Shown in pieces: positions 828 through 11,044 of a DNA stretch of 64,000 bases. Both the position numbers and the translations under genes were made by a program. Under the pieces are notes generated by a model. The model had not been told where the DNA came from. It worked only from the letters and a program-made list of their open reading frames with translations, and ran no database searches. Every line of letters starts with the position of its first letter. Within the stretch, counting starts at the first letter, position 1. Source of the stretch: an uncultured SAR86 cluster bacterium (lineage in GTDB: Bacteria > Pseudomonadota > Gammaproteobacteria > Magnimaribacterales > D2472); NCBI GenBank assembly GCA_902556355.1, contig CACDVW010000001.1:5164-69163 (forward strand), written 5' to 3'.

Positions 828-1913
828 TCAGAATTCTTTTTTTAAAACTAATTTTATTAGTTTGTTGATATCAATTTCACTAATTATATTAATAAGATCT
901 TTTTCTGATGAAACATCATTTCCAAATAAATTTTTGTTAATTTGATTGATCTCATCGAATGTAAAATTTGATAAAAGATATAACTTGCAATATCCACTAA
1001 ACCATTTTGAGAATTCAGTCTGTTTAGTTTTATTTACCACATTTTTGTATGAGGATTTTTTAAAAAACACATTATTTTCTTTGACTGAAAGTAAAGATGA
1101 GGTTTCTACCTCAGGAATTTGGTTGTTATTATGTATTTCGATTACATTTTCAAAAACCTCATAGTTGGCGTATTTTTGTATTTGTTTTTCTAAAGTTGCA
1201 GATTCTGTTTTGGCCTCTCCAATTAAAAATTCATCTTTATCAATAACTTCAGTATTATTATTTTCTTCTTGCGAAGGAAACATTCTTATCATTGATAGCT
1301 CAATTATATTAAATCCTGATGGAAGAATTGTTCTAAGGCAATTCTCATTTTGTATTTGGCTCTGCTTTATAGCCATAAAATCAGGACTTCCCGATTTATA
1401 ATCTAATGGAACTTGAGTTTCTGTAATATATCCATTTTTTGAAAAATAAAAAGAAGATATCATTTCAAGGTAGGGCTCCATCCCATAACCCTTTTTAGAT
1501 TTATCAATTTTCAAAACTAAAATATTTTCATTCTCTGATCTATTAAGGTTTTTTTTAATTATTTTTCTAAAATGATTTTCATTCTCGATTTCAACTGGAA
1601 CAAAAATTTTATTTCCTTTAAATAAATATTCTCTTTTTTTAGACAATAATATGGGTGAATATTTTGGTTTATATCCATCATATATGCCTGTGATAAATCT
1701 ATATTCCAATGCAGATGAAACAATTTTAAGAAGTCCTCTTGTAGAAAAAGGATAAATAGAATTTTCTAAATATGCGCTACCAGATAAACTGCTAACCAAA
1801 AAAGCTGTTCTGGGATCAAGTATTAACCCTTGACCTATAGGTGTGTCTGTAATTTTTACATTTAATAACTTTTGTAAAGTATATAAAACACTTTTACTTT
1901 CAAGATTAGACAT
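828..1913 (-). CDS. Hypothetical protein; candidate restriction endonuclease (possible PD...ExK motif)
   Basis: 361-aa ORF with an ATG start that overlaps the upstream methyltransferase stop by 8 nt (ATGTCTAA). It contains SGSPDFMAIK ... FLIGEAKTES, which could be a PD-(D/E)xK motif with long spacing. The context is two MTases. Confidence 0.6.
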   Translation of the reverse strand: MSNLESKSVLYTLQKLLNVKITDTPIGQGLILDPRTAFLVSSLSGSAYLENSIYPFSTRGLLKIVSSALEYRFITGIYDGYKPKYSPILLSKKREYLFKGNKIFVPVEIENENHFRKIIKKNLNRSENENILVLKIDKSKKGYGMEPYLEMISSFYFSKNGYITETQVPLDYKSGSPDFMAIKQSQIQNENCLRTILPSGFNIIELSMIRMFPSQEENNNTEVIDKDEFLIGEAKTESATLEKQIQKYANYEVFENVIEIHNNNQIPEVETSSLLSVKENNVFFKKSSYKNVVNKTKQTEFSKWFSGYCKLYLLSNFTFDEINQINKNLFGNDVSSEKDLINIISEIDINKLIKLVLKKEF

Positions 1914-3036
1914 TTCTCATAATCAAAACTCTATCGAGTTTCTCTTTTTTCTTTTGAATTGAATTAGTTCCACCATATTTCACAATTGTTGTTTTTGATG
2001 CTGGTATTTGATCATTAATAATATCAACCTTTTTAAAACCAATTTTTTCATAAAGATCAGCAATGTCTTCAGCTGTGTTTAGTGACTTGCTTGGAGAAAG
2101 ATGAACATCTCCTAAAATAAATACAAGTAAACCGTCTTTTTTTAATACTCGTTTCATTTCCCTTCCAACCAAATACATTTGATCAAGGTAGGTAGATCTT
2201 TGTTGGATTAAATTAGTAGTTAATTCCTCTTGTTGGTGATCATTTTGATCACATAACCACAACCTAAGCCTATTGGAGTGAACATAGTCTAGGGTGTGGT
2301 AATAAGGTGGGGATGAAATAACATTGTTTACTGAATTAGTTTTTAGAGATAGCTTTCTTGAGTCTTCTTGAAGAATTTTTCCTTGAACATCTAAACTAAC
2401 TTCATCCTTATACATCCTTGATGCTTTGCTAATCATTCTTGGGATTACTTCTCTATATTCTTTTTTAGGTTTTGGATTTGGAATATATGGAATTATATAT
2501 CCGGTTCTAATAGATAGATGTTGAGGTCTGTGACCATGTAAAATCCCCAAAAGACATCCGTATAAAAAATTTCTTTCATTTTTAATTAAAATCTCTTTAA
2601 GCTGTAGTATTTCTACAAGTGTTTTTTTATGGAAATATTCTTTTACCCACATAGGTACAGATTCTAAGTCTGGTATTGGTTCTTTTTTCAAATTGATTTG
2701 ATTTAAAAAATTAATTTCTTCATCAACCCCCCTTCTATCAAATTTTGATTTTGAAATTAACACAGCGTAGGGATTTAAATCATTTCCTATAAATTTACGA
2801 TTTAATTGATCTAACTCTAAGGGAATTGTTCCAATACCACAAAAAGGATCCAAAACTACCTGACCTTCAGTTGTTAATTCTTTTATTAAAAAATGAGCAA
2901 ATGCTGGTTTAATTCTTCCAACATACGATGAAATAGAATGCATCCAAATTCCCCAATTTTGTTTTGAAAATGGCTGCTCTTTCCATGGACACTTTTTAAG
3001 TCGCCTTATCCTTTTTTTTAAATCACTATCATTCAT
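1906..3036 (-). CDS. SAM-dependent DNA methyltransferase with an SPPY motif (N4-cytosine or N6-adenine type)
   Basis: AdoMet motif VLDPFCGIGT (aa 61-70) and catalytic motif SSPPYY (aa 241-246) are separated by about 170 aa (order I, insert, IV). There is an 8-nt ATGAATGA overlap with the upstream MTase. Confidence 0.85.
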   Translation of the reverse strand: MNDSDLKKRIRRLKKCPWKEQPFSKQNWGIWMHSISSYVGRIKPAFAHFLIKELTTEGQVVLDPFCGIGTIPLELDQLNRKFIGNDLNPYAVLISKSKFDRRGVDEEINFLNQINLKKEPIPDLESVPMWVKEYFHKKTLVEILQLKEILIKNERNFLYGCLLGILHGHRPQHLSIRTGYIIPYIPNPKPKKEYREVIPRMISKASRMYKDEVSLDVQGKILQEDSRKLSLKTNSVNNVISSPPYYHTLDYVHSNRLRLWLCDQNDHQQEELTTNLIQQRSTYLDQMYLVGREMKRVLKKDGLLVFILGDVHLSPSKSLNTAEDIADLYEKIGFKKVDIINDQIPASKTTIVKYGGTNSIQKKKEKLDRVLIMRNV

Positions 3037-4084
3037 CTTTTTTGAAAATCAAACAATAATGGTGAACAATGTTGGAGGTCCATCCAAAAGGATATCCAAA
3101 TGGCGCTAATCCAACTTTATCTTGACACCATATTTTTTCATCTTTTAATGAATACTTTGTTTCTAAGTTTTTAGCTAAATCCCATGCGAGTGGATAATGC
3201 TTACCTGATTTTTTTAAATTCTTTACAATAACAACCAAATATCCACCTGGTTTAATAAAACTAAATATATCTAAATATATATTTGAAAGAATTGATAAAA
3301 ATTCCTTGTAATCACTTATATTTCCAATGTCTTCTTCAAATGAAGAATAATTAATATCTAGATTTTTTGAACTTCTTATTTTAGAAAATTTACCTGTACT
3401 TCTGTTAAGAATGTCCCAATAAGGAGGTGAACTTATACAAAAATCAATTTTATCTACTTTATGTTTTTTTAATAATTTTTTGACATTTTTAGAATCTCCA
3501 TGAATCACTTTCGATTTGGTTCTAAGTTTAATTATTTGACAATACTTTTTATTTATCTCAATACCAATACCCGTTCTATTAGTTCTGTCACATGCAACTA
3601 AAGTAGACCCAATTCCAGAAAAGGGATCAAAAACTATCTCATTTTCTTTTGTAAAAAATTTAATAAAATCTTCCATCATAGATGGTGAATATGTTGCAGG
3701 ATGTTCTTCAGCATTTAACCCAGCCTTTGTTGTAATTTCTTTTTCTTCTTTTAAGTCTTTACTGAGAGCGTCAAACACAAACCAGCTTTTAGTAAATTTG
3801 GTCCAGCTTTTTCCTTCTAAGTGATTTAATTTATTTCTTAATGAGTAAGATCCTCTTTCTGGATCTAATATAATGGAATCTGCTTTTTCAATTTCACCTT
3901 TGGTATGAAAAAGAGATACATTCTTCCAGTCATCTTGATATTCTTTTGGAATAGTTTTAAAAATCTTTTTCCTTCTTATTGATCTTAATATATCCCTGGC
4001 TTGTATATGCAACTCCTCAGATGCAACTGGTACTATTTTTCTTTTATCTGAATAATAAAAATATGGTCTTTTAAGTGATTTCAC
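3029..4084 (-). CDS. SAM-dependent DNA methyltransferase with an SPPY motif (N6_N4_Mtase-like)
   Basis: Motifs HPATYSPSMMEDFIKFF...VFDPFSGIGST (aa 128-161), IGIEINKKY, then ISSPPYWD (aa 217-224), only about 60 aa after motif I. The start is GTG. Confidence 0.85.
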   Translation of the reverse strand: MKSLKRPYFYYSDKRKIVPVASEELHIQARDILRSIRRKKIFKTIPKEYQDDWKNVSLFHTKGEIEKADSIILDPERGSYSLRNKLNHLEGKSWTKFTKSWFVFDALSKDLKEEKEITTKAGLNAEEHPATYSPSMMEDFIKFFTKENEIVFDPFSGIGSTLVACDRTNRTGIGIEINKKYCQIIKLRTKSKVIHGDSKNVKKLLKKHKVDKIDFCISSPPYWDILNRSTGKFSKIRSSKNLDINYSSFEEDIGNISDYKEFLSILSNIYLDIFSFIKPGGYLVVIVKNLKKSGKHYPLAWDLAKNLETKYSLKDEKIWCQDKVGLAPFGYPFGWTSNIVHHYCLIFKKDE

Positions 4085-4127
4085 GTATCGAATTATATAT
4101 TATTTTAGTATGTTAAATATTTGTTAT

Positions 4128-4574
4128 TCATGCGTTTTTCCAATAACTTAATGTTTTTTGATTAATTTGTGTTTGATCACAAATATCGGTAATTGATGTA
4201 TAAAATTTATCTGCAGACTCGTCATCAATTAGTAGTCTCAAGCATTCAATGATTCTTGTTATCCTGAGTTGATTATGGTTATATCCTCTTTTCCAATACT
4301 TATGTCTTTTTAAGAAAGATAAAAACCAATCAGAAGATTTAATGATATTTTGTCTTACCAGATTATCATTTTTTAATATCTGGACTAATTCATCTGTATC
4401 CAAATAGTATCCATGAAATGAGGACTGGCTTTTTTTGTTTAATGGAAAAAGTATTTGAATAAAGTCATGATTAATTTCTATTTCGTTGTCTGAGTAATTC
4501 CATATGTCCTGAATCATTCTATTTTTAAAGTCTGAATCTTTACCCAATAAAAAATTATGGAAATTCATCTCCAT
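4128..4574 (-). CDS. OGFr_N-like protein (homologue of the opioid growth factor receptor conserved region)
   Basis: NHDFIQILFPL and YNHNQLRITRIIECLRLL match the two signature blocks of the OGFr N-terminal domain (human HNHTYIQWLFPL / QHNYLRITRILKSLGELG). The track start at 4577 is TTG; the ATG at 4574 is preferred. Confidence 0.75.
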   Translation of the reverse strand: MEMNFHNFLLGKDSDFKNRMIQDIWNYSDNEIEINHDFIQILFPLNKKSQSSFHGYYLDTDELVQILKNDNLVRQNIIKSSDWFLSFLKRHKYWKRGYNHNQLRITRIIECLRLLIDDESADKFYTSITDICDQTQINQKTLSYWKNA

Positions 4575-4628
4575 CAAAAAAGAGTCTCTGATTTATTTGT
4601 TTGATTTAAGAATATGATTTTAAAAAAT

Positions 4629-5021
4629 TTACTTATTCTTTCTTGAGAAGTCATTAATATCTCCATAAAATGATTCAAAAATCAAAGCTCCGTTGGTGAT
4701 TTTTATAAACTTCTTAACGTGTTCAGATGTTGGTACCCGATAACCATACGCGTATGATTTCATGGTTGATCTTTTTTCATCAAAAATTTCAGAAGACGCT
4801 CTAATACCAATATGTAAAATTAAATTTTGAAATGTATAAATATTGTTATTTTTAACTAAGTCAATTTTTTTTCTCTTATAAGAATTGATAATTTTTTTAT
4901 TTTTATTTAAAAATAGATCTAATGGATCATCGTAGGACTCTTCATTATTTTTAAATAAAATAGTTTTTGATTTTGCGTATTTCTCTATGTTTTTATAGTA
5001 ATTTAATTGATACTCATCCAT
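4629..5021 (-). CDS. Hypothetical protein (130 aa)
   Basis: The ATG start overlaps the upstream protease stop by 8 nt (ATGGATGA), which suggests translational coupling. No motif recognised. Confidence 0.6.
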   Translation of the reverse strand: MDEYQLNYYKNIEKYAKSKTILFKNNEESYDDPLDLFLNKNKKIINSYKRKKIDLVKNNNIYTFQNLILHIGIRASSEIFDEKRSTMKSYAYGYRVPTSEHVKKFIKITNGALIFESFYGDINDFSRKNK

Positions 5022-5727
5022 TTATTGTCCCTATAAAAATTTTTTCAGATTTATAATGAAATGTTAATGCGAAGTGATGAAAGATGTCTGCCCCCAAGAT
5101 TGCTTTAGTGTTTGAAGATAACATTGCTGATTCAAGTTGATCTGGCAAAACCCCAAAATTAAAAGGTATTTCAATTCCGTTAAACGTAATTGGAAGTGAG
5201 TATATTGGAACATCAAATTCACCAAAACTAGGAAAGAAGTCTTTCTTTTGATCTATTGCAATTAAATCTTTTACATATTGACTATTAATATACGAAATCT
5301 TTGCCCCAGTATCTAACCAAGATATGATTGGGTAGTCTTTGTTCACTATGACATACATTGAGGGTATGCTTCTAAAATCTGCATCGACGTATATTTCTTG
5401 ATTAATTTCATTCTCCGGAAATGAGTCCCATACAGAAAATAATTTATTCTTAAAATCAATTTGAAAAACATAATTTGCTAGAACATTGTTGCCAATTAAT
5501 GCATCAAGATGGCATCCAACAAATTCACTTAACTGTTCTATGTCTGCTCCGTGATATTTGTCCTTTGTTGCAAAAGTTCTATCAAAGATTTCGAATACAT
5601 CTTCTCCAGATATTGAAACAGGTGCCCCGGTGTCAATCAGAATTCTTCTATCTTTGTCTAATACAATGACATGATTATCAAAGATATCTATTTCATATCT
5701 TTTGCAATTATTAACATCATTATTCAT
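5014..5727 (-). CDS. Single-chain, two-lobed retropepsin-like aspartic peptidase
   Basis: Two DTGA catalytic motifs (ILIDTGAPVS aa 29-38; WLDTGAKIS aa 137-145). Each is followed about 45-70 aa later by a retropepsin-type ILG-like block (LIGNNVL aa 77-83; ILGADIF aa 210-216). Confidence 0.7.
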   Translation of the reverse strand: MNNDVNNCKRYEIDIFDNHVIVLDKDRRILIDTGAPVSISGEDVFEIFDRTFATKDKYHGADIEQLSEFVGCHLDALIGNNVLANYVFQIDFKNKLFSVWDSFPENEINQEIYVDADFRSIPSMYVIVNKDYPIISWLDTGAKISYINSQYVKDLIAIDQKKDFFPSFGEFDVPIYSLPITFNGIEIPFNFGVLPDQLESAMLSSNTKAILGADIFHHFALTFHYKSEKIFIGTING

Positions 5728-6123
5728 CTATGTCTCAAGTCCTATAATTCTTTTTTGGCACTCATGAAAATCAATCAAGTATTCGTAGGGTTTTATTGTC
5801 TCTATATTATGTTCGACTACTCTTCTAAACATAGACTCAATGTTTTTTATGGCTGATGTATGTCCATACTTAATTTTGTAATCTTCAATGGTTTCTTCGA
5901 TTACTTCTTGATGAATGATTAACATTGTCATTCCACTAACAAAAAGATCCTTTGATGAGTACCATCTAACATTGTTTCTATTTCTATCGTCTTCGATTAT
6001 TAAGTAATCTGTAAACTCTTTTGATTCTTTTATGAAGTCTTTGCATGACTCTACAAGTTCATGATCATCATTAGTTAACTCAACTTCATTAAAATTACCG
6101 AAAATACTCTGAACGTTAGACAT
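5728..6123 (-). CDS. Hypothetical protein (131 aa), first gene downstream of the SOS-box-like site
   Basis: ATG start. Its TAG stop abuts the protease ATG (TAGATG). No motif recognised. Confidence 0.6.
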   Translation of the reverse strand: MSNVQSIFGNFNEVELTNDDHELVESCKDFIKESKEFTDYLIIEDDRNRNNVRWYSSKDLFVSGMTMLIIHQEVIEETIEDYKIKYGHTSAIKNIESMFRRVVEHNIETIKPYEYLIDFHECQKRIIGLET

Positions 6124-6149
6124 CTATCAATACTATCGAAAATAATTAC

Positions 6150-6169
6150 TACTGTATATACATATAGTT
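6150..6169 (-). promoter_or_regulatory. LexA (SOS) box-like operator TACTGTATATACATATAGTT
   Basis: CTGT-N8-ATAG, the same half-sites and spacing as the box in front of the window's own lexA (36617..36636, TACTGTATAAATATATAGTA). It lies 27 nt upstream of the 5728..6123 start codon, in a 48-nt intergenic gap. Confidence 0.5.
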
Positions 6170-6171
6170 AA

Positions 6172-6375
6172 TTAATCGTACTTATTTTTTAAAGTCTTGG
6201 TTATCTCTCTCATAAAAGAAAGTTGAGAAAATAAATTTGCACTTTCATCATTTAAATCTTCCCACGTTAACCAATCAAAATTATTGGATCCAATTTTTCC
6301 AAGTTTCTTTATTTTTTTATCAATTGACTTAATTCTAAACCAAAGTCTAATATCGTTATCATTTTTGATTTCCAT
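6172..6375 (-). CDS. Hypothetical small protein (about 67 aa)
   Basis: An internal ATG (MEIKNDNDIRLWF...) sits 1 nt after the stop of the upstream ORF. The longer track start (6420) would overlap that ORF by 44 nt. Confidence 0.5.
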   Translation of the reverse strand: MEIKNDNDIRLWFRIKSIDKKIKKLGKIGSNNFDWLTWEDLNDESANLFSQLSFMREITKTLKNKYD

Positions 6376-6376
6376 A

Positions 6377-6670
6377 TTAGACCCAAGTATTAGTTGAATA
6401 CTTGATTCCCTTATCATCACAAATATCTTTTAAGTCATGAAGAGTGAATTTCTCTTCGGAATTAAATCCCATGATAAGAATCTCTATTGCGAACTTGGGT
6501 AAATAGTCTTTCTCAATAATTAGATAATACTCATACTCATCATTACCCCAGAATTCTTCAACATCTGAACCGTAGTGAAAAGAACTGAGAATAAGGTCTC
6601 CATTAACACCATATTCACCATAAACAGAATAACTGCCATGGGGAAACTCTTCTCTATAGATTTGTTCCAT
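6377..6670 (-). CDS. Hypothetical acidic small protein (about 97 aa)
   Basis: The ATG at 6670 (MEQIYREEF...) is preceded by GGAG with a 6-nt spacer. Alternative starts are the ATG at 6682 and the GTG at 6691. The protein is rich in E/D/Y. Confidence 0.55.
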   Translation of the reverse strand: MEQIYREEFPHGSYSVYGEYGVNGDLILSSFHYGSDVEEFWGNDEYEYYLIIEKDYLPKFAIEILIMGFNSEEKFTLHDLKDICDDKGIKYSTNTWV

Positions 6671-6810
6671 ATTTTTCTCCATAAAAATCACACTCGAAAT
6701 TGAGTGAAATGACGTGGGTAATGAAATTCGAAATAGAAAAAATATTTCTTTGATTACACTTATATATATGGGGTTTAGATTAGGTTTTTAAAGGTCGGTT
6801 AGATAGTTTA

Positions 6811-7245
6811 TTAAAAAGAAATTGATTCGCTGTCTTCATTAAAAAAATACTTTTCCATTTCTTTATACTTGGTTGTTGATGAGTACCATCCTTTTTCATT
6901 CCATGAAGTTGTATTTTTATATCTATCAATAAACAACTCTAAAGCTTCATCGTGATTATAGATATAAAAACCATTATCGCTTGGATAGGCCATATAAATA
7001 TTTTTATTCATATATTTTTTTTCGAATGTTAATCGACTTTTGAGTTGTATTTTGTATACATCCCCCTCGGTTGATAACGCTAATAGGTCAGCGCCATGAA
7101 CATCGTCATTTAACCATATACAGTTAAACCCATAAGTGCTGAGCAAGGATGCAAGTTTATGAAAATTATAGTTTTCTTTTTGTTTATTATTTAGAGATAC
7201 GTAAGATGCTTTTTTGAAAGTCTTATTTAAGTCTTTGTTTATCAC
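6811..7245 (-). CDS. Small PD-(D/E)xK-fold nuclease-like protein (Hjc/DUF4365-like pattern)
   Basis: The pattern is E24 ... YGFNCIWL ... GAD53LLAL ... VYKIQ67LK69S. This resembles the Hjc-type E / D / (E/Q)xK arrangement with the GF-containing helix. The start is GTG. Confidence 0.55.
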   Translation of the reverse strand: MINKDLNKTFKKASYVSLNNKQKENYNFHKLASLLSTYGFNCIWLNDDVHGADLLALSTEGDVYKIQLKSRLTFEKKYMNKNIYMAYPSDNGFYIYNHDEALELFIDRYKNTTSWNEKGWYSSTTKYKEMEKYFFNEDSESISF

Positions 7246-7305
7246 GTTTGATTTGGTTATTAATAATTTAGTTTAATTTTAATGATATTTTTTTTAAAAG
7301 TTGAT

Positions 7306-8679
7306 TTAATTAAGTTTTTTATCAATTCCTTGAATCCTGTTTAGATATTCATGAGTTTCTTGGGAATTAAGTATTATAGTTTCTCGGTCTCTTCTTAAAT
7401 AAAAAATAGGCTCTTTGTCTGGATATTTTTTAATCTTGTTAAAATGTGTATCTACACAAAAAACTCCCCCGTTTACTCTTTCAACTGAAATTTCACAAAC
7501 TCTTTTATTCTGAATTGTTTCATATACAAAAGATATTTTGTTTGAAACTTCTTTTCCCAGACAGTCCATTACATATCTGTTAATAAGACGTGTGTACTCA
7601 TCTTCATTTTCAACAAGAACTTTAGGAATTTTATTGCTGATTTTATCTTTTTCTAAACCTATGATTTCCAAGTCATCTCTAACACCAATTATTAAAGTTC
7701 CTCCTTTAGAATTCATAAACCCAGCTATTGCTTTAAGACATTCGTGTCTTATCTCTTTTAAGACATTGTTTGTTTTCTGACATTTAAAAAAAGAAGATTT
7801 TAGTTCAACAGTGGTAGTTTCGTGATTAATTATTTTTGACATAATTCTGTCTACTGATTCTGATTCAAAAAACTTTAAATAGTCTTCTACTGTTGTTGAT
7901 GCAAGGGTTAAGCTTTGTCTAGTCATTTGCTGAGTTTCATTTAAATTTATTAAACCTTTTTCATTTGGTATAGGGTCTGTTAAATCTTCTCGTAGACTCA
8001 TCATGCTGCTAACAAATTCCTCTTTTCTGATTATTTGGGTTACTAAAAAAAGGGGTATTATTATTGAAGACATTCCGAATGATTTATAGGTCGCATGAAG
8101 AGTTATAAGGCAAGCTCTCTGTTCTTCAGTTAAAGTTTTTATATCATTGATAATGCTTTTTACAATTTTTAGTTCTTGATATTTTTTAATATCAATAAAA
8201 TCAAAAGGATTTTCATCCTTGTCTAAATTTCCTCTTAAGGGGTTGTTATGATAAATTCTTGCCATTCCGTATTGAAATAGTTTATGTACTTCTTCTTCTC
8301 CATATTTGCTTATTAGCGCTTTGGTCACAGAGTTGCTTCTTCGATGTTTAATATTTTCAGAATCAGGGTCCATTAACTCGGAAACCCACAAACCATCTTC
8401 ATAAATTGCGTGTGGGTAATAATTGTGATAATCACTGTTTTCAGTTCCATGAATTTGTGTGCTAAAGATTCTATATGCACAAAATTCTTGTGTATTAATA
8501 TAACCATCTTTTAATTCTGTATTTGAACAATTTTCAAGATCAGCAATAATAAAATCCAAGAATGATTTATTTGTATGGCATATTTCAGATTTTCCACGAA
8601 AATTAAGAATGTTTTTTTGTGTTGATTCATCAATTATGAAATATTTGTTATTTTTTTTTAATATGGAGAAAAAATTCAT
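7306..8679 (-). CDS. AlbA_2 (Schlafen-like, 'divergent AAA') domain protein with an unknown N-terminal domain of about 280 aa
   Basis: The C-terminal block TVELKSSFF...EIRHECLKAIAGFMNSKGGTLIIGVRDDLEIIGLE matches the AlbA_2 signature (E.K ... ia AfaNt.GG.l.iGv.d.g.i.G). The start lies 5 nt after the stop of 8685..8966. Confidence 0.7.
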   Translation of the reverse strand: MNFFSILKKNNKYFIIDESTQKNILNFRGKSEICHTNKSFLDFIIADLENCSNTELKDGYINTQEFCAYRIFSTQIHGTENSDYHNYYPHAIYEDGLWVSELMDPDSENIKHRRSNSVTKALISKYGEEEVHKLFQYGMARIYHNNPLRGNLDKDENPFDFIDIKKYQELKIVKSIINDIKTLTEEQRACLITLHATYKSFGMSSIIIPLFLVTQIIRKEEFVSSMMSLREDLTDPIPNEKGLINLNETQQMTRQSLTLASTTVEDYLKFFESESVDRIMSKIINHETTTVELKSSFFKCQKTNNVLKEIRHECLKAIAGFMNSKGGTLIIGVRDDLEIIGLEKDKISNKIPKVLVENEDEYTRLINRYVMDCLGKEVSNKISFVYETIQNKRVCEISVERVNGGVFCVDTHFNKIKKYPDKEPIFYLRRDRETIILNSQETHEYLNRIQGIDKKLN

Positions 8680-9809: not shown

Positions 9810-10469
9810 TTAACAATGACAAAAGATATGACGTTTTACTTCACTGGCTGCGAAGGAAACATCGACAGTTTCAATAATAGATAAATCAACAAAGTAATCT
9901 CTATCTGCTCTTGGAGCATTGATATCATTGTTTACAAAGAAATCTTTATTAGCTTCATAGATTGCGTACATAACTTGATACTTATCTACTCCCAGATCGT
10001 TAGCTATCTGTGATGCAGTGCTCCATAGAGTTTCCATCTCAGAGCCAGATACAAATATTGGCTCGGGCTCTTCAATGACTTCTCTAATCATTGGTTCGGT
10101 CTCTTCATATGCTATCTGTACCGAAGAGACTGGTTCTACTATCTCAGAAGAGGACTTCACAATCGTAAAAGCTATAACTCCAAGACTTGCTGCAATTGCA
10201 AAACCAATTAAAGGTTTGAAATTAATTGTTGAAACATTCGAAAGCTTCTCAAGTTGCTCACTGATAAAAGCTTCTGCCTTAGCATTGAGCTCATCTCTTC
10301 TTTCCCCGCCAAAGAAGCCCTCAAGCATGGACTCTGAGACAAGCAAGCTTTCATAAAATTCTTTGGCTTCTTTTGAGGCATCAATAAGTGCTTTTAGCTC
10401 AGGAGAGTTTTCGAGCGTAGCTCCATCATCCATTAGTTCAATTATTTGTATTTGCTTTTCTTCGTTCAT
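9810..10469 (-). CDS. Anti-sigma factor-like single-pass membrane protein with a FimV/LysM-like C-terminal domain
   Basis: Its ATG overlaps the sigma-factor TGA (ATGA). It has a central TM segment (LIGFAIAASLGVIAFTIV). The C-terminal TLWSTASQIANDLGVDKYQVMYAIYEANKDFFVNNDIN resembles the FimV N-terminal motif. Confidence 0.65.
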   Translation of the reverse strand: MNEEKQIQIIELMDDGATLENSPELKALIDASKEAKEFYESLLVSESMLEGFFGGERRDELNAKAEAFISEQLEKLSNVSTINFKPLIGFAIAASLGVIAFTIVKSSSEIVEPVSSVQIAYEETEPMIREVIEEPEPIFVSGSEMETLWSTASQIANDLGVDKYQVMYAIYEANKDFFVNNDINAPRADRDYFVDLSIIETVDVSFAASEVKRHIFCHC

Positions 10470-11044
10470 AATTTTCTGTCCATACATTTAGCAAGTTTTA
10501 TTCTTGCTCTATTAGCTTTCACCCTCAAATTTGCCATACTGTTATCACTCACAACTTCTTGAATCTCTTCATAGCTATGACCAGCACCCAGCATTGATAA
10601 AATAATTTGATCTGTTTCATCAAAAGACTCTAAGCATGTGAGCATTTGCTGAAACTCAAAATTCTGTTGGTGAAATCCATCATTGGTTACTGGTATATCA
10701 TTACCTTCAATTGAGACCATTCTTTTTTGTTTGCGTAAATTATCTACATGGTTATTCTTGAGAATTTTTTTGGCGTAAGCCATGGGTTTTGCATGCTCTA
10801 AGAATTTATCTTTGTTGTTGATTAGTTTTATTATGGTGTTATGAACCAAGTCTGATGAATCTGCCTTATTCTTATAAGTTAAAAACATGGCATAAGGCAT
10901 TAGCTTTTTGCTCATATCTTCAAGTAATTCTTTAAATGTCATCTCTATTTCATTCTTACACGATTTATTATCTTCGTGTCTAAGCGCAAGAAGTTTTTCC
11001 TGCTTATTTACAGTCCTAGATTCTATGTTCACAAGTGCTTCCAT
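10466..11044 (-). CDS. ECF-family (sigma-70 group 4) RNA polymerase sigma factor
   Basis: Region 2-like DLVHNTIIKLINNKDKF...AKKILKNNHVDNLRKQKR and a region 4 HTH, DQIILSMLGAGHSYEEIQEVV...NLRVKANRARIKLAKCM. Confidence 0.8.
   Translation of the reverse strand: MEALVNIESRTVNKQEKLLALRHEDNKSCKNEIEMTFKELLEDMSKKLMPYAMFLTYKNKADSSDLVHNTIIKLINNKDKFLEHAKPMAYAKKILKNNHVDNLRKQKRMVSIEGNDIPVTNDGFHQQNFEFQQMLTCLESFDETDQIILSMLGAGHSYEEIQEVVSDNSMANLRVKANRARIKLAKCMDRKL

Follow-up and report, generated by a model that had tools for sequence, protein, structure and literature searches.

A predicted single-chain, two-lobed retropepsin-like protease from an uncultured SAR86 bacterium and its family

Introduction

Aspartic proteases are a textbook case of the proposed evolution from a homodimer to a single chain by gene duplication and fusion, and the kinship of the two pepsin lobes is visible only in structure. 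This duplication-fusion step is said to have been postulated by Tang et al. in 1978. Here, we describe a gene in a 64,000-nucleotide stretch of DNA from an uncultured SAR86 cluster bacterium, a low-GC marine gammaproteobacterium (contig CACDVW010000001.1 of assembly GCA_902556355.1, positions 5,164 to 69,163); this whole stretch is called the window in the following. The gene encodes a protein of 237 amino acids (aa) with two retropepsin-like lobes, which an earlier note, made from the sequence alone, had read as a pepsin-style pseudo-dimer in a bacterium. The protein is probably a soluble, cytoplasmic, single-chain aspartic endopeptidase of clan AA, in whose family an ancient tandem duplication would have fused two retropepsin-like half-barrels into a chain of about 225 aa.

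The pepsin family A1, including the bacterial shewasins A and D, comprises single-chain enzymes of two similar lobes with one inter-lobe active site and with one D-T/S-G and one hydrophobic-hydrophobic-Gly motif per lobe (PMC2761423, PMC4814920). The bacterial A1 homologues lack signal peptides, and in sequence the A1 lobes share only motifs (PMC2761423). Retropepsin-like enzymes, such as the retroviral proteases (A2), Ddi1 (A28) and the bacterial APRc, RimB and RloA, have lobes of about 105-130 aa (PMC4140852, PMC11957791, PMC12239564); those characterised from bacteria are single-lobe homodimers, in which the dyad is formed by homodimerisation (PMC12239564, PMC4140852). In the engineered tethered HIV-1 protease (203 aa, e.g. 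PDB 1g6l and 1hvc), two retropepsin units were joined in a chain of ~200 aa with one active site. The closest solved relative of the window protein is PDB entry 9iy9, a 420-aa 'putative endopeptidase / exported protein' from Bacteroides fragilis released in 2025; a literature search found no paper describing this structure.

The window protein resembles the A1 enzymes in its single chain, two similar lobes, predicted inter-lobe active site and motifs per lobe, and it shares the lack of a signal peptide with the bacterial A1 homologues. It differs in size, since its family has about 225-237 aa and its own lobes 105 + 132 aa, compared with large lobes and a mature size of about 320-340 aa in A1 (chains of about 315-342 aa among the structural matches). 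In lobe size, predicted fold and motifs, each lobe corresponds to the homodimeric retropepsin-like enzymes, but both lobes are carried in one open reading frame (ORF) with no intervening stop, and the protein is predicted to be cytoplasmic, whereas APRc and RloA are membrane-bound or secreted. The tethered HIV-1 protease has the same general layout, but it is artificial and its halves are identical, whereas the window protein would be a natural, ancient fusion of asymmetrically diverged halves.

The protease gene and its motifs

The ORF starts with ATG, and its strand (minus) was the sole addition needed to the earlier description. Translation reproduced the 237 aa, the two DTGA motifs and the two downstream blocks which had been reported. 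The features of the gene are as follows:

5014..5727, minus strand: protease ORF, 237 aa, ATG start, from the translation; stop codon at 5014-5016
5413..5727, minus strand: N-terminal lobe, aa 1-105, from the secondary structure of an AlphaFold2 (AF2) model and from hhalign homology to the C-terminal lobe
5623..5634, minus strand: catalytic motif 1, D32-T33-G34-A35 (aa 32-35), followed by a near-invariant P36, from translation and alignments
5479..5499, minus strand: LIGNNVL, aa 77-83, the hydrophobic-hydrophobic-Gly block of the N-lobe (second psi-loop motif), from translation and alignments
5017..5412, minus strand: C-terminal lobe, aa 106-237, of the same topology as the N-lobe, from the AF2 model and hhalign
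5302..5313, minus strand: catalytic motif 2, D139-T140-G141-A142 (aa 139-142), from translation and alignments
5215..5241, minus strand: D163-F-F-P-S-F-G-E-F171, a family-specific conserved segment of the C-lobe, from the alignment; on the model hairpin E159-165/E169-182
5080..5100, minus strand: ILGADIF, aa 210-216, the hydrophobic-hydrophobic-Gly block of the C-lobe, from translation and alignments

The clan AA active-site motif (hydrophobic-hydrophobic-Asp-Thr/Ser-Gly-Ala/Ser/Thr) is present twice, as LIDTGA (aa 30-35) and as WLDTGA (aa 137-142), and each DTG is followed downstream by the psi-loop motif of the clan (L77-I78-G79 and I210-L211-G212). Catalytic motif 2 belongs to a family signature, DTGAKISY (aa 139-146), and the LIGNNVL block of the N-lobe aligns with the 'LIGLDML' block of Ddi1. 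From DTG to the hydrophobic-hydrophobic-Gly block, 45 aa were counted in the sequence of the N-lobe, compared with 71 aa in that of the C-lobe; these ~26 additional residues of the C-lobe include a long hairpin (aa 159-192).

Neither a signal peptide nor a transmembrane segment was found in a hydropathy scan of the protein, which agrees with the earlier description: the highest Kyte-Doolittle mean over 19 residues is 0.96, and that of the first 25 residues is -0.59. With no export signal, the sequence predicts a cytoplasmic location. The ratio of non-synonymous to synonymous substitutions (dN/dS) against close relatives is 0.14-0.18, i.e. the gene is under purifying selection.

Size, conservation and distribution of the family

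The single protease sequence was searched against Pfam, NCBIfam, PHROGs, PADLOC and, with phmmer, the PDB. The Pfam families PF13975, PF13650 and PF00077 were hit at E-values of 0.011-0.045, and Ddi1 was the PDB match at E ~0.1. All of these hits are sub-threshold, hence a family alignment was needed. A database search with the protease returned 55 homologous clusters, nearly all with 220-240 aa and many of marine metagenomic origin. An exhaustive search of 1.84 billion representatives with a hidden Markov model (HMM) retrieved 818 clusters (at 50% identity) at E ≤ 1e-30; the number rose to 1954 at E ≤ 1e-10 and to 9485 at E ≤ 1e-3. Each of the top 150 representatives covers both lobes. The family is mostly stand-alone with a length of ~225 aa: among 203 relatives, 169 have 200-260 aa spanning both lobes, and in 178 the domain is preceded by ≤ 10 residues.

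Conservation was evaluated in two alignments, one of 40 homologues with identities as low as 24% and a larger one of 205 sequences. D32, T33, G34, D139, T140, G141, A142 and G212 are invariant in the smaller alignment, and L77 and G79 are near-invariant. Counting only rows without a gap, motif 1 of the larger set has D32 in 197/199, Thr or Ser in 199/199 and Gly in 199/200 sequences; for motif 2, the values are 202/202 (D139), 199/201 (Thr or Ser), 198/201 (Gly) and 198/201 (Ala), and for the psi-loop glycines 200/202 (G79) and 198/200 (G212). The catalytic and psi-loop residues of both lobes are therewith kept in ~98-100% of the 205 aligned members. Loss of the DTGA motifs in homologues, which the earlier note had named as evidence against its reading, was thus not observed. 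The C-lobe has a signature of its own, with S145, Y146, D163, F164, P166, G169, F171, G192 and P195 kept in the 205 members; among them, D163, F164, P166, G169 and F171 each reach 191 or more of ~201 sequences.

With DTGAKISY as the retrieval pattern, 27 genome loci and 121 metagenome loci were obtained (loci are numbered with the prefix L below). The genome loci come from more than 10 phyla and are spread patchily over Proteobacteria, Marinimicrobia, Acidobacteria, Bacteroidota, Ignavibacteria, Chloroflexi, Planctomycetes, Verrucomicrobia, Actinobacteria, the candidate phyla radiation (CPR) and others. Such a patchy distribution fits an accessory, horizontally transferred gene. The nearest homologue in a named genome, a metagenome-assembled genome (MAG) of SAR86, has 61% identity. 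No family relatives occur in the viral contigs of IMG/VR, the phages of INPHARED or the plasmids of PLSDB; these zero counts speak against a phage or plasmid origin, and the family is cellular. There is no Pfam or NCBIfam model which covers the two-lobed family, and literature searches on 9iy9, on tandem or two retropepsin domains, on bacterial PF13650/PF13975 proteins and on Swiss-army-knife effector proteases returned no description of it.

Homology of the two lobes

The 40-sequence alignment was split at position 105 and both halves (aa 1-105 and aa 106-237) were compared using hhalign. They align with a probability of 97% and an E-value of 1.2e-10, whereby DTG is paired with DTG and each hydrophobic-hydrophobic-Gly block with its counterpart. 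The sequence profiles thus identify the lobes as homologous. In a BLAST comparison of 67 diverse members, every N-N and every C-C lobe pair is significant, but only 63 of 8978 N-C pairs are (best E-value 1.8e-7), which points to one duplication before the family radiated.

Predicted fold and clan assignment

The earlier note had proposed a fold prediction as a check. AF2 with the family alignment gave a confident two-lobe model (pLDDT 93.2, predicted TM-score [pTM] 0.89). In the N-lobe, the model has beta strands leading to the DTG loop, a short hairpin (aa 44-53), a helix, the hydrophobic-hydrophobic-Gly block and closing strands; the hairpin is, in this model, the flap-equivalent region. A Foldseek search of the PDB with the model had 427 matches at E ≤ 1e-3. 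The top match was 9iy9 (E 6e-8, query TM-score [TMq] 0.61, 300 columns), and the rest of the top 50 listed matches are pepsin-family structures (plasmepsins, renin, cathepsin D, chymosin) with TMq 0.5-0.6. Since the alignments to pepsins span 300-355 columns, both lobes are matched. Against the viral models of BFVD, single-lobe retropepsin matches of about 100-140 columns were found; one whole-chain match (241 columns) is an unnamed entry of 203 aa, the length of the tethered HIV-1 protease dimers. The confident model thus resembles pepsins when the whole chain is compared and retropepsins when either lobe is.

Sequence profiles lead to the same group of proteins. The family profile matches Ddi1 (4.8e-8), feline immunodeficiency virus (FIV) protease (2.4e-5) and 9iy9 (6.8e-5) among the PDB sequences, and weakly the tethered HIV-1 protease entries; a sub-profile matches 9iy9 at E 3e-7. 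When the 40 aligned members were searched individually at E ≤ 0.01, PF13975 was hit by 32/40, RVP by 27/40 and Asp_protease_2 by 26/40. The active-site motif, the psi-loop motif, the profile similarity and the beta-barrel fold, the latter from the predicted model, are those of clan AA. Model and sequences together support a natural single-chain pseudo-dimer of retropepsin-like lobes, each with a catalytic DTG, which is the core of the earlier pepsin-style proposal.

Three observations lead to the inferred geometry of an intramolecular Asp32/Asp139 dyad: the fold matches are global, the pTM is high, and both Thr are invariant, the residues which build the 'fireman's grip' between the lobes in established structures of aspartic proteases. 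By the mechanism proposed here, Asp32 would come from the N-lobe and Asp139 from the C-lobe; the two D-T-G loops would meet at the lobe interface, with their Thr interlocked as in pepsin and retropepsin, and would hold one water molecule, which would attack the peptide bond of a substrate bound in the inter-lobe cleft. After the fusion, the lobes would have specialised: the C-lobe would have gained the longer, highly conserved hairpin (DFxPxxGxF), of which D163-F171 would be the tip, probably lying over the active site as a single flap. As two diverged lobes are covalently fused, the enzyme would be intrinsically asymmetric and its activity should not need dimerisation. Proteolytic activity of the protein and its family is likewise predicted from sequence and model.

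Several results weigh against this interpretation. The single protease sequence stays under every Pfam gathering threshold (best 16.8 bits, cut-off 28.2), and the only PADLOC match is marginal and partial (PDC-M08B, a single-lobe model of ~128 positions, E 0.0026). The global fold matches on which the dyad rests have a high root mean square deviation (6-8 Å). The 123 loci fell into 74 groups at 90% identity, and any one neighbouring gene recurs in four of these at most; hence, genomic context gives no substrate. Any link to defence or conflict systems is anecdotal.

Catalysis and chain assembly leave room for two other explanations. The protein could be a catalytically inactive binding or scaffold protein that kept the retropepsin fold. 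Some Ddi1-like proteins, the pregnancy-associated glycoproteins and the xylanase inhibitor TAXI are inactive members of clan AA, the fusions of family members to interaction domains (vWA, Ank, WG repeats) would suit an adaptor too, and the peptidase activity of the family is so far a prediction from motifs and model. Clan AA non-peptidases have, however, typically lost one or both catalytic Asp (PMC2761423). In this family both Asp, Thr/Ser and Gly are kept in ~99% of 205 sequences from many phyla, a retention that is hard to explain without catalysis, and we regard an inactive scaffold as highly improbable. The other explanation concerns assembly: in a domain-swapped homodimer, the N-lobe of chain A would pair with the C-lobe of chain B, giving two active sites per dimer. 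Retropepsin-like domains are intrinsically prone to dimerise (PMC12239564), and the prediction was made for a monomer and is blind to swapping. Yet, with a pTM of 0.89, the monomer model places the two lobes relative to each other with confidence. It can be superposed as a whole on pepsins, which are monomeric, and on 9iy9, itself a single chain, and the linker between the lobes (about aa 100-112) is short; we give a swap only the slightest chance of being correct. The preferred reading is still the monomeric single-chain protease.

Comparison with pepsins and 9iy9

The protein is pepsin-like in having one chain, two lobes and one predicted dyad, but it falls outside family A1, because it has no PF00026 match, has 237 aa and has lobes that are still similar. 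Among 40 relatives, PF00026 was matched by only three, weakly (best E 1.5e-4). The similarity of the lobes described above (E 1.2e-10, and for some pairs visible by plain BLAST) contrasts with the A1 lobes, as does, according to the model, the longer flap-like hairpin, which would lie in the C-lobe instead of the N-lobe.

Of the retropepsin-like enzymes, Ddi1 and FIV protease are the best sequence-profile matches, and retropepsins are the single-lobe structural matches. 9iy9 also has two DTG lobes in one chain; in the HMM alignment these appear as FIFDTGAGTSYMS, then VLGMDFIG, then HFDTGNSTAG. Its DTGAxxSY resembles the DTGAKISY of the family, but is located in the first lobe, that of the family in the second. 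Further differences are its name as an exported protein and ~160 extra N-terminal residues, compared with a window protein without signal peptide or extra domain, and an identity of 14%, with the profile similarity confined to the motif regions; 9iy9 was not retrieved as a family member. From its two DTG lobes it follows that secreted tandem-lobe retropepsin-like proteases also exist in gut Bacteroides. A two-lobed protease is therefore not unprecedented in bacteria, given the bacterial A1 homologues (PMC2761423), 9iy9 and the hundreds of 50%-identity clusters found here.

The window protein is a predicted minimal, cytoplasmic, sequence-symmetric bilobal clan AA protease and defines a large uncharacterised family. 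As a form found in nature, it resembles an intermediate between retropepsin dimers and pepsins, and it is of interest mainly for evolution and enzymology. The lobes are retropepsin-sized, homologous in sequence and already asymmetric, and provide a tractable snapshot of the transition from dimer to bilobal enzyme. We consider it quite unlikely, though worth stating, that the family is the surviving minimal form of the duplication-fusion step itself, i.e. the prokaryotic lineage from or alongside which the bilobal A1 pepsins arose. If this were true, bilobal aspartic proteases would be of bacterial origin, and a lobe-resolved phylogeny with ancestral reconstruction could then directly test which came first, retropepsin or pepsin, a question that Rawlings and Bateman had raised (PMC2761423). 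The family also offers a minimal monomeric aspartic-protease scaffold for engineering.

Fusions, gene neighbours and possible role

About 16% of the top 150 representatives are fusions. The partners are N-terminal vWA domains (5 representatives), ankyrin repeats, Macro, PTP-SAK dual-specificity phosphatase, WG repeats, DUF7663 and a C-terminal S-adenosylmethionine (SAM) methyltransferase. The vWA fusions (P0140, P0189, P0127, P0187 and P0210) have about 640-660 aa (P0127: 489 aa) and consist of the N-terminal vWA, a stretch of ~240 residues without assignment and, C-terminally, the two-lobed protease. Some of these partners are also found as separate genes: in L024, a Planctomycetia MAG, a vWA gene (L024:3679-4959) overlaps the protease gene by 4 nt, and methyltransferase genes overlap it by 4 nt in L025 and L035. 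PARG/macro-type genes are located near protease homologues in Bacteroidales loci. The recurrent vWA, Macro, phosphatase and ankyrin fusions and the variable islands point to an unexplored intracellular proteolysis of regulatory or conflict-related kind.

Fusions and neighbours suggest that proteins or peptides are processed specifically inside the cell, possibly as part of conflict or stress modules, and the pattern fits a plug-in processing or effector protease, not a housekeeping enzyme. The role is the least certain part of the proposal: as an accessory and horizontally mobile function, the protease would cleave proteins or peptides within the cell in a limited and specific way, and it would be co-transcribed with lineage-specific small ORFs in an island beside a restriction-modification (R-M) system and a Schlafen/AlbA_2 gene.

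Some distant homologues have defence-looking neighbours (L028:5714-6376, L033:2088-3113, L019:5811-6539 and L088:4719-5399), which are anecdotal. One of these neighbours resembles Csm6, with a score of 68 bits that stays below the cut-off; Cas1-like, NERD-like and SIR2-like neighbours were judged by eye alone.

In the window, the protease gene lies between two genes of small proteins:

5728..6123, minus strand: upstream gene of an acidic helical-bundle protein, 131 aa; its TAG abuts the protease ATG (TAGATG)
4629..5021, minus strand: downstream gene of a basic protein, 130 aa, pI 9.5; overlaps the last 8 nt of the protease ORF (ATGGATGA)

The coupled junctions on both sides, already noticed earlier, were found as described. 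Both genes are under purifying selection against close relatives (dN/dS 0.13-0.18 for the 131-aa and 0.19-0.23 for the 130-aa gene), and we take all three ORFs to be real genes. The 32 clusters of the 131-aa family are exclusively marine, with identities of 60% or more. Its AF2 model is an all-helical bundle (pLDDT 84) without a Foldseek match in the PDB below E 0.5.

The flanking proteins had been put forward as substrates, inhibitors or partners of the protease. Expressed as an explanation for the locus, the 131-aa protein, the protease and the 130-aa protein would form a dedicated module, in which the small proteins act as substrate, inhibitor or antitoxin-like partner, for example a protease-activated toxin or a defence cassette. 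The translationally coupled junctions, the purifying selection on all three ORFs and the variable island with R-M and SLFN/AlbA_2 genes around them would suit such a module. The trio is kept in L012-L014 and in L123, a MAG contig (GCA_028352365.1) syntenic with the window, all relatives at 89-92% protease identity, and in L012 it stands beside an R-M system different from that of the window. In addition, the protease is followed by a coupled small ORF in most marine relatives, although this ORF differs from case to case. Outside the closest clade, however, the proposal finds no support, and the co-occurrence check found no family-wide association in the 74 locus groups. By tblastn against all loci, both flanking genes were found only in the closest clade, with at least 87% protease identity; near protease homologues of 50-60% identity and below, both are mostly lacking. 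The 130-aa protein is an orphan with only 3 clusters in a database of 5.8 billion proteins. Its place is taken by unrelated ORFs of 101 + 112 aa or of 111 aa in relatives whose protease is 87-94% identical, and in SAR86-type relatives (~61%) the downstream ORFs have 84-90 aa; in pairwise BLAST, these alternative ORFs are unrelated to each other, except for those of 101 and 111 aa. The 131-aa gene adjoins the protease in L012, L043-046 and L123, but its family also occurs without the protease in L126-129, where a member of 71% identity heads a different set of small genes; a homologue of 32% identity lies on the opposite strand in L052. Against L123, the synonymous divergence (dS) of the 131-aa gene is 1.08 and that of the protease 0.25. 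This ~4-fold jump across their junction indicates separate histories and recombination at the junction. Neither flanking gene has a PADLOC match, and the fold modelled for the 131-aa protein is a helical bundle of a generic kind. The sequences compared thus do not support a dedicated three-gene system at family level, and as an explanation for the window such a system is unlikely. The 131-aa gene appears to be a lineage-specific neighbour rather than a family-wide partner, and there may be a lineage-specific functional link, e.g. with whatever small protein is encoded downstream.

A maturation protease for the leader peptide or pro-protein of a ribosomal peptide or small protein encoded nearby, as in systems for ribosomally synthesised and post-translationally modified peptides (RiPPs), would also account for the small variable ORFs after the gene in marine relatives. 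In four termite-gut, Bacteroidales-type locus groups (L085:2463-3671 and neighbours, L099, L100 and L106), a pseudo-radical-SAM (pseudo-rSAM) gene of TIGR04150, the GG-Bacteroidales RiPP system, is directly upstream (304 bits, cut-off 250), and the protease homologue follows 3-263 nt downstream. The adjacent and fused methyltransferases have a daptide-type RiPP methyltransferase as their best NCBIfam match, below the cut-off. This context is, however, limited to the small termite-gut subclade, whose proteases also carry a ~100-aa N-terminal extension. The island of the window has no RiPP maturase, and RiPP precursors as long as the downstream ORFs (84-130 aa) would be unusual; a RiPP-type function is accordingly rated as very unlikely.

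The genomic island around the protease

The first ~10-13 kb of the window are a low-GC island (28-30%, compared with 33-37% elsewhere), which also contains several small unknown ORFs. Aconitase B, ferritin and other flanking housekeeping genes are 93-95% identical to L123. The island is a mosaic in this comparison, with identities of 97-99% for the R-M genes, 92% for the protease, 76% for the 131-aa gene and 71% for a sigma factor. Scans of 3900-7400 for promoters and terminators gave no more sites than shuffled sequence.

An R-M-like cluster at 828-4084 (minus strand) comprises two N6_N4_Mtase genes with overlapping ends (1906-3036 and 3029-4084) and an ORF of 361 aa (828-1913, minus strand), which has no Pfam hit and could be the endonuclease. 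In the 89% identical cassette of L012, a C5 DNA_methylase and a 341-aa gene are found at this position. The gene at 4128-4577 (minus strand) encodes a 149-aa protein with an OGFr_N (opioid growth factor receptor N-terminal) domain (E 1.1e-8) and travels with the protease cassette in L043, L046 and L123. On the other side of the protease, the C-terminal Schlafen/AlbA_2 domain (E 3e-12) belongs to a 457-aa protein (7306-8679, minus strand); its gene is absent from L123, which has a 355-aa gene on the other strand in its place.

An unknown protein of 104 aa, p104, is encoded at 6377-6691 (minus strand) and its gene overlaps p82 (6172-6420) by 44 nt. Homologues of p104 with 40-71% identity lie directly beside protease homologues in L016:4538-4867, a SAR86 MAG, and in L053:3514-3828, and in L123 the p104/p82 pair is relocated within the island. 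At 9810-11044 (minus strand), the gene of an ECF-like sigma factor (Sigma70_r2, 10466-11044) overlaps an ORF of 225 aa, whose product has a hydrophobic segment at its centre and may be an anti-sigma factor. In L001, the truncated protease homologue also has a sigma gene of similar type beside it.

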